This document shows, one piece after another, positions 33,192-33,206 of a stretch of DNA of 64,000 nucleotides. The position numbers were made by a program, and so were the translations under genes. The DNA lies in assembly GCF_001677475.2 (NCBI RefSeq), contig NZ_CP015229.1; one strand, 5' to 3'. Numbering within the stretch: the first letter of the stretch is position 1; each line of letters starts with the position of its first letter. A model generated the notes under the pieces. It was given only the letters and a program-made list of their open reading frames with translations. It did no database searches and had not been told where the DNA came from. This DNA comes from Escherichia coli (GTDB lineage: Bacteria > Pseudomonadota > Gammaproteobacteria > Enterobacterales > Enterobacteriaceae).

Positions 33192-33206
33192 TGGCATGAT
33201 TCTTGT
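33192..33206 (+). promoter_or_regulatory. Candidate sigma-54 (-24/-12) promoter of pspG
   Basis: tggcatgattcttgt resembles TGGCAC-N5-TTGC(A/T), at a suitable distance upstream of pspG. Confidence 0.5.

Follow-up and report, generated by a model that had tools for sequence, protein, structure and literature searches.

The stretch analysed here, referred to as the window, is 64 kb of Escherichia coli DNA. On its + strand it carries dusA, the gene for tRNA dihydrouridine synthase A, at 32072–33109 (stop codon TAA at 33107–33109; ORF list and RefSeq annotation of K-12 and a near-identical genome). The end of dusA is the upstream limit of a 133-nt spacer, beyond which pspG follows on the same strand at 33243–33485, as annotated in RefSeq and supported by Pfam. 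The 80-aa product of pspG, an inner-membrane effector of the phage-shock response, matches Pfam family PF09583 (Phageshock_PspG) over its full length, with 88.6 bits against a cut-off of 25 and E = 3.4e-25. The gene order dusA-pspG-qorA-dnaB was found in essentially all of the ~5,400 complete E. coli genomes in RefSeq. In comparison with the pspG promoter of E. coli K-12, the window has the same gene order (dusA-pspG-qor-dnaB), a PspG protein that is 100% identical, an identical 17-mer at the core promoter and the same predicted leader of 25 nt.

Read directly from the sequence, tggcatgattcttgt occupies exactly positions 33192–33206 of the + strand. The −24 GG is located at 33193–33194 and is followed by ten bases and then by the −12 GT at 33205–33206, which is the −24/−12 geometry of sigma-54 promoters. 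The promoter reads TGGCAT-N5-TTGTA, as compared with the sigma-54 consensus TGGCAC-N5-TTGCW, and conforms to this pattern with a non-consensus T in the −12 dinucleotide (GT versus the consensus GC). The element lies inside the dusA–pspG spacer, on the + strand and 51 nt ahead of the pspG start codon (ATG at 33243). The initial annotation had placed a −24/−12-like element at this position upstream of pspG, and its coordinates proved to be exact.

The 17-mer TTGGCATGATTCTTGTA (33191–33207, + strand) encloses this element and constitutes the proposed core promoter. By the rule of Bonocora 2015, in which the start lies 19 nt from the motif centre, transcription is predicted to begin at the G at 33218 (+ strand). 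The resulting pspG leader would span 25 nt (33218–33242) and include the Shine-Dalgarno sequence GGGAGAG (33232–33238), whose columns are conserved across species, while the other leader bases vary.

Motif strength and conservation of the core element

The loose pattern TGGCAY-N5-TTGY has two matches in the window, against 0.9 expected. We also constructed a sigma-54 matrix from 133 ChIP-mapped E. coli sites, omitting pspA and pspG to prevent circularity. The pspG element scores 14.47 with this matrix, which equals the median of the genuine sites, and the pspA element scores slightly lower, at 13.87. The pspG element ranks second among the ~128,000 positions of the window, and shuffled 64-kb sequences yield ~1.0 score equal to it. 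The pspG motif taken alone is no more than what chance provides. Its placement is distinctive: within the top 12 matrix hits of the window, it is the only one of its score that is intergenic, correctly oriented and ~25 nt, counted from the predicted start, from a start codon.

Two other matrix hits were recorded. The top sigma-54 score of the window, 15.11, belongs to CCGGCCCAGTTTTTGCT (19769–19785, − strand). When mapped to strain VCSW7, this hit falls on the antisense strand of lamB, close to the 3' end of the gene. The supplements of Bonocora 2015 hold no entry for lamB, and CCGGCCCAGTTTTTGCT is probably an unbound chance match. The third-ranking hit, CTGGCACATGACTTGCC (26635–26651, − strand; score 13.97), is a fully canonical sigma-54 motif located inside plsB in the sense orientation. 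The supplement of Bonocora 2015 (PMC4591121) already includes this plsB site, at coordinate 4254270, among its intragenic ChIP-seq sites of low stringency.

We compared 80 pspG loci, one per species, ranging from Escherichia to Yersinia, Rahnella, Biostraticola, and Brenneria. Every one of them has the −24/−12 element upstream of pspG. The hexamer at −24 reads TGGCAT in 43 loci, whereas 36 have TGGCAC and one has TGTCAT; for the tetramer at −12, 75 loci have TTGT, three have TTGA, and TTGG and TTGC occur once each. Six loci that appeared to lack the motif were rejected as exceptions: five carry TTGA or TTGG at −12, and in one the −24 GG is changed to GT. A per-column conservation profile, calculated from 72 distinct upstream sequences, revealed a series of conserved blocks, namely the block that follows the dusA stop codon, the stem of a hairpin, AATCAA...TTA, TTGGCAYG..CTTGTAA, and GGGAGAG. 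Between these blocks, the hairpin loop and most of the leader vary freely.

The single locus with a damaged −24 GG among the 80 is that of Citrobacter werkmanii NBRC 105721, which reads TTGTCATGTTTCTTGT ~50 nt upstream of pspG. This change could be a sequencing error, or it could mark a lineage with a crippled pspG promoter.

The non-consensus −12 base is common to the pspG and pspA promoters, which also have the same activator. The E. coli pspA promoter carries TTGGCACGCAAATTGTA, and pspA of both E. coli and Salmonella reads TTGTA at −12. Given that 75 of the 80 pspG loci have T at this position and a single one has C, whereas the Y of TGGCAY alternates freely (43 T, 36 C), the T common to the two promoters might have been retained by selection rather than by accident. 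A weakened fork-junction contact could then set the basal leak of PspF promoters, or their sensitivity to the activator. We offer this explanation tentatively and regard it as rather doubtful.

The candidate enhancer, the dusA terminator and the putative IHF site

Among the non-coding blocks of the dusA–pspG spacer, the column profile shows the strongest conservation for TTTTCACCAAAAAGTAGTCAAATTAACCAC, at 33111–33140 on the + strand (~−107 to −78 relative to the predicted start). This block belongs to the 3' untranslated region of dusA, with its first base two positions past the stop codon. Three half-sites can be recognized on the + strand: CACCAA (33115–33120), GTAGTC (33124–33129) after N3, and AACCAC (33135–33140) after N5. 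This layout is most clearly visible in Brenneria, where the enhancer reads GACTAA-N3-TTAGTC-N5-GACTAA.

An enhancer matrix was derived from pspG loci only, with 8 of the 80 loci left out. It found the block in 80/80 loci, including the eight omitted ones, and in the 64-kb window it gave a score of 41.5 to the site itself and scores of −4.1 or lower to everything else. Applied to the 2-kb pspF-pspA locus of K-12, the matrix returned AATTCGCCACTTGTTAGTGTAATTCGCTAA as its best match (positions 1119–1148 of that locus, score 11.0), within the pspF-pspA intergenic region and upstream of the pspA −24 element. A second match, scoring 9.7, lies on the opposite strand of the same place and reflects partial dyad symmetry; the next unrelated match in the locus scores −11. 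The pspA enhancer, CGCCAC-N3-TTAGTG-N5-CGCTAA, and the pspG block, CACCAA-N3-GTAGTC-N5-AACCAC, thus follow one three-half-site layout. Like pspG, pspA also has an A/T-rich IHF region directly upstream of its −24 element. The two loci differ in the distance from the enhancer to TGGCA, which is 94 nt in pspA and 81 nt in the pspG locus of the window, and in their surroundings: the enhancer of pspA also serves as operator for the divergent pspF, whereas the pspG enhancer follows the convergently terminated dusA. The published positions of UAS I and UAS II of pspA are ~−80 to −126. Conservation and the cross-match with pspA suggest that 33111–33140 is a PspF UAS of the pspA type that serves pspG.

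The distance between the enhancer block and TGGCA falls into classes, with 81–83 nt in 75 of the 80 loci, 89–91 nt in three and 103 nt in two. The classes are approximately one and two helical turns apart, so that insertions between genera, in the IHF core offset described below as well, come in units of roughly one helical turn, consistent with a face-of-helix requirement. In two Salmonella enterica subspecies, the block has an offset of 82 nt, equal to that in the window. The −24 element of these two loci is located 84–85 nt from the ATG, as compared with 51 nt here, and their leader is longer.

A terminator scan detected an intrinsic terminator of dusA at 33139–33164 (+ strand), composed of the hairpin ACGCCCTGCG-CACCGT-CGCGGGGCGT followed by TTTTGCTGTT. 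The hairpin sits between the enhancer and the IHF site described below, and overlaps the final two bases of the third half-site. In single-sequence predictions for ~70 species, the hairpin folded at energies between −12 and −23 kcal/mol; its stems differ in sequence, and a T-run comes after it in each case. RNAalifold predicted 10 pairs, 7 of which show compensatory double changes. The assignment of this hairpin to the end of dusA accounts for pspG not simply being transcribed together with dusA. Its placement implies that dusA transcripts traverse the PspF site and terminate ahead of the IHF site. The change of enhancer spacing in steps of a helical turn and the presence of the dusA terminator inside the DNA loop could be functional parts of the promoter geometry, although we consider this a weaker idea than selection for the −12 T.

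The proximity of the enhancer block to the terminator, within the dusA 3' untranslated region, could also be explained if 33111–33140 were an element of the dusA 3' end, such as a signal for RNA stability or a portion of the terminator, with the true enhancer located elsewhere, for example inside dusA. This interpretation would not account for the cross-match to the pspA enhancer, which the block matrix finds as a single strong match in the pspF-pspA locus with the same N3/N5 spacing. In addition, the spacing between the block and the −24 element either stays constant or shifts by increments of ~10 nt, a constraint of DNA geometry and not of RNA, and Yersinia, Rahnella, Biostraticola, and Brenneria keep the block despite a different sequence between the block and the IHF site. 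Over its last 20 nt, dusA is no more conserved than a coding sequence is expected to be, which argues against an enhancer inside the gene. A dusA element in place of the enhancer is therefore very unlikely, and we retain 33111–33140 as the candidate PspF enhancer. The initial annotation had expected an enhancer upstream, overlapping the dusA 3' end. The upstream location holds, in that the block occupies the 3' untranslated region of dusA and runs into the start of the terminator, but it does not enter the dusA coding sequence, which closes at 33109.

Between the enhancer and the −24 element, AATCAACAGATTA (AATCAA-CAGA-TTA; 33175–33187, + strand; ~−43 to −31) is a perfect match to WATCAANNNNTTR and represents a putative IHF site, as judged from its sequence and position. 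The AATCAA and TTA columns of this core are conserved in the profile, and the four middle bases are variable. The pattern WATCAR-N4-WTR was too strict, as it missed 43 loci, and the core CAA-N4-TTR was used instead. This core precedes TGGCA with an offset of 14–15 nt in 64 loci and 24–25 nt in five, together 69 of the 80, and the five loci with the larger offset are those with the longer enhancer spacing. The remaining 11 loci carry a core with one mismatch in the same place. Neither the IHF site nor the non-consensus −12 base had been mentioned in the initial annotation.

A promoter scan of 32900–33750 detected no sigma-70-type promoter on the + strand. A sigma-70 candidate noted by eye, TTGTAA-N16/17-CATATT at 33203–33231, was rejected, as it matches 8 of 12 positions, would start within the Shine-Dalgarno sequence and is absent from the scan. 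With a covarying terminator upstream and no sigma-70-like promoter on the + strand, the alternative routes to pspG expression look closed.

Published evidence and the proposed mechanism

The 17-mer at 33191–33207 is identical, letter for letter, to the motif of the sigma-54 ChIP-seq site OS40, which is listed with a FAT of 15, the gene pspG and 25 nt from the predicted start to the ATG (PMC4591121, Table 1). The EcoCyc status of OS40 is given as ‘C’, that is, experimentally confirmed (PMC4591121). Upon sigma-54 overexpression, pspG RNA increased from 14 to 109 reads, and the authors ascribe both pspA and pspG to PspF (Bonocora 2015, PMC4591121). Binding was also observed in vitro, where genomic SELEX with reconstituted sigma-54 holoenzyme recovered the dusA>pspG spacer (Shimada 2021, PMC8743547). 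The orthologous site of Salmonella Typhimurium, TGGCATGATTTTTGTAAG upstream of pspG (STM4244), was enriched 39-fold in sigma-54 ChIP-chip, with PspF listed as the activator (Samuels 2013, PMC3844500). A promiscuous activator raised Salmonella pspG only 1.4-fold (PMC3844500), which we count against the promoter.

PspF binds the UAS of pspA and that of pspG (Mehta 2013, PMC3709507, citing Lloyd et al. 2004). The same work describes one UAS and 20-fold induction for pspG, two UAS and 100-fold induction for pspA, and a role for IHF at psp promoters (PMC3709507). PspF binding at pspG, induction that requires pspF, and repression by PspA are stated in PMC3709507, PMC3068692, and PMC5596341, with reference to Lloyd 2004 or to Green and Darwin 2004. 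A base-level description of the pspG promoter is absent from PMC2763126, PMC3041696, and PMC4551910.

These reports also bear on whether the pspG site acts as a sink that titrates PspF, instead of as a promoter. Deletion of the pspG promoter region, which titrates PspF, alters PspF dynamics and lifts basal pspA transcription more than 3-fold (PMC3709507), and the 135 ChIP-seq sites for the most part do not correspond to known promoters (PMC4591121); yet RNA rose on sigma-54 overexpression for just five genes with an intergenic site upstream, pspG among them (PMC4591121), and a 20-fold induction of pspG is reported (PMC3709507). Moreover, the site faces pspG at ~25 nt, by the predicted start, from the ATG, with the enhancer and IHF architecture conserved upstream of it. 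A sink in place of a promoter is thus highly improbable, and a sink role may instead exist in addition to promoter function.

The view that the element is a chance sigma-54-like motif without promoter function, with pspG owing its expression to dusA read-through or to a sigma-70 promoter, gains some credit from the motif counts (two loose matches against 0.9 expected and about one equal matrix score per shuffled window), but it is effectively refuted by the retention of the element in every species while nearby leader and spacer bases vary, by binding at the site in ChIP-seq, SELEX, and, for the Salmonella orthologue, ChIP-chip, by the covarying terminator that parts dusA from pspG, and by the lack of a sigma-70-type promoter on the + strand of 32900–33750.

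We conclude with near certainty that 33191–33207 is the sigma-54 (RpoN) core promoter of pspG, with a PspF enhancer and an IHF site upstream. This conclusion draws on published sigma-54 binding, on position and on conservation, as the motif score by itself would not be enough, and we met no evidence that contradicts it. The positions of the PspF site, the IHF site and the start point at pspG are predictions from the sequence.

The general mechanism of sigma-54 promoters under PspF is established, including the closed complex, the activator, bending by IHF, the use of ATP, and control by PspA. Applied to pspG, RNA polymerase–sigma-54 would bind the −24 GG and −12 GT of 33191–33207 and form a closed complex that is unable to open DNA alone. 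Hexamers of the AAA+ activator PspF would assemble on the candidate enhancer at 33111–33140, about 80–107 nt upstream of the start. IHF bound at 33175–33187 would bend the intervening DNA, allowing PspF to contact sigma-54, and ATP hydrolysis by PspF would then open the promoter. Transcription would start near 33218 and yield a pspG mRNA with a 25-nt leader. Without membrane stress, PspA would keep PspF inactive; stress from a secretin or on the proton-motive force would free PspF, and pspG would be induced together with pspABCDE. The dusA terminator at 33139–33164 would insulate pspG from read-through.

The sigma-54 promoter of pspG is an already known, textbook feature. The sigma-54 and PspF papers cited above (PMC4591121, PMC8743547, PMC3844500, and PMC3709507) refer to Lloyd et al. 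2004, J Biol Chem 279:55707, as the primary description of pspG with its sigma-54/PspF/IHF promoter; this work reportedly covers the IHF dependence of pspG and, according to citing papers, a reporter fusion with stress-, PspF-, and rpoN-dependent activity; Green and Darwin 2004 is reportedly the Yersinia pspG paper. The promoter has since been re-found by every genome-wide sigma-54 map. As a discovery it matters little, and the locus serves as a positive control. A reading of the sequence alone had proposed a sigma-54 promoter for pspG under PspF control, which corresponds to the published status (OS40, EcoCyc ‘C’; PspF binding at the pspG UAS, PMC3709507). That reading recognized a real sigma-54 promoter with a non-consensus −12 base and placed the enhancer to an accuracy of a few bases. 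To this, our comparison across species adds a base-level map of the enhancer half-sites, the embedded terminator, the IHF core and the core promoter. The apparent selection for the −12 T, the helical-turn enhancer spacing, the terminator in the enhancer loop and a rare enhancer variant are only mildly new.

Alleles of this strain and neighbouring features

The rare enhancer variant is one of two single-base differences from K-12 in the 160 nt upstream of pspG. Position 33135, the first base of the third enhancer half-site, is A in the window, whereas K-12 and at least 90% of the species have C. Judged by the conservation of this base, the C-to-A change could weaken PspF binding in this strain. 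The other difference, at 33181 (C here, T in K-12), falls among the middle bases of the IHF core, which are not constrained. Only 4 of the ~5,400 complete E. coli genomes, namely three ST2747 assemblies and the soil isolate VCSW7, carry the exact 146-nt haplotype at 100% identity, which implies an uncommon lineage as the source of the window.

In the pspG 3' region, positions 33542–33652 (+ strand) are 100% identical to the K-12 small RNA PspH. This stretch ends at a bidirectional terminator (33621–33643) that is common to the convergent qor. PspH is a sponge of the sRNA Spf, and a promoter of its own has been suggested as possible (Melamed 2016). An Rfam scan of 32900–33800 returned only sub-threshold hairpin matches, located at the pspG/qor terminator.

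Upstream of dusA, positions 30686–31708 (+ strand) contain an intact 340-aa ORF of the DUF2713 family (474.8 bits). The annotation of VCSW7 shows a single 318-aa gene for this ORF, and K-12 has two genes there, yjbL (84 aa) and yjbM (235 aa, DUF2713). The N-terminal region of the 340-aa ORF contains short repeats.
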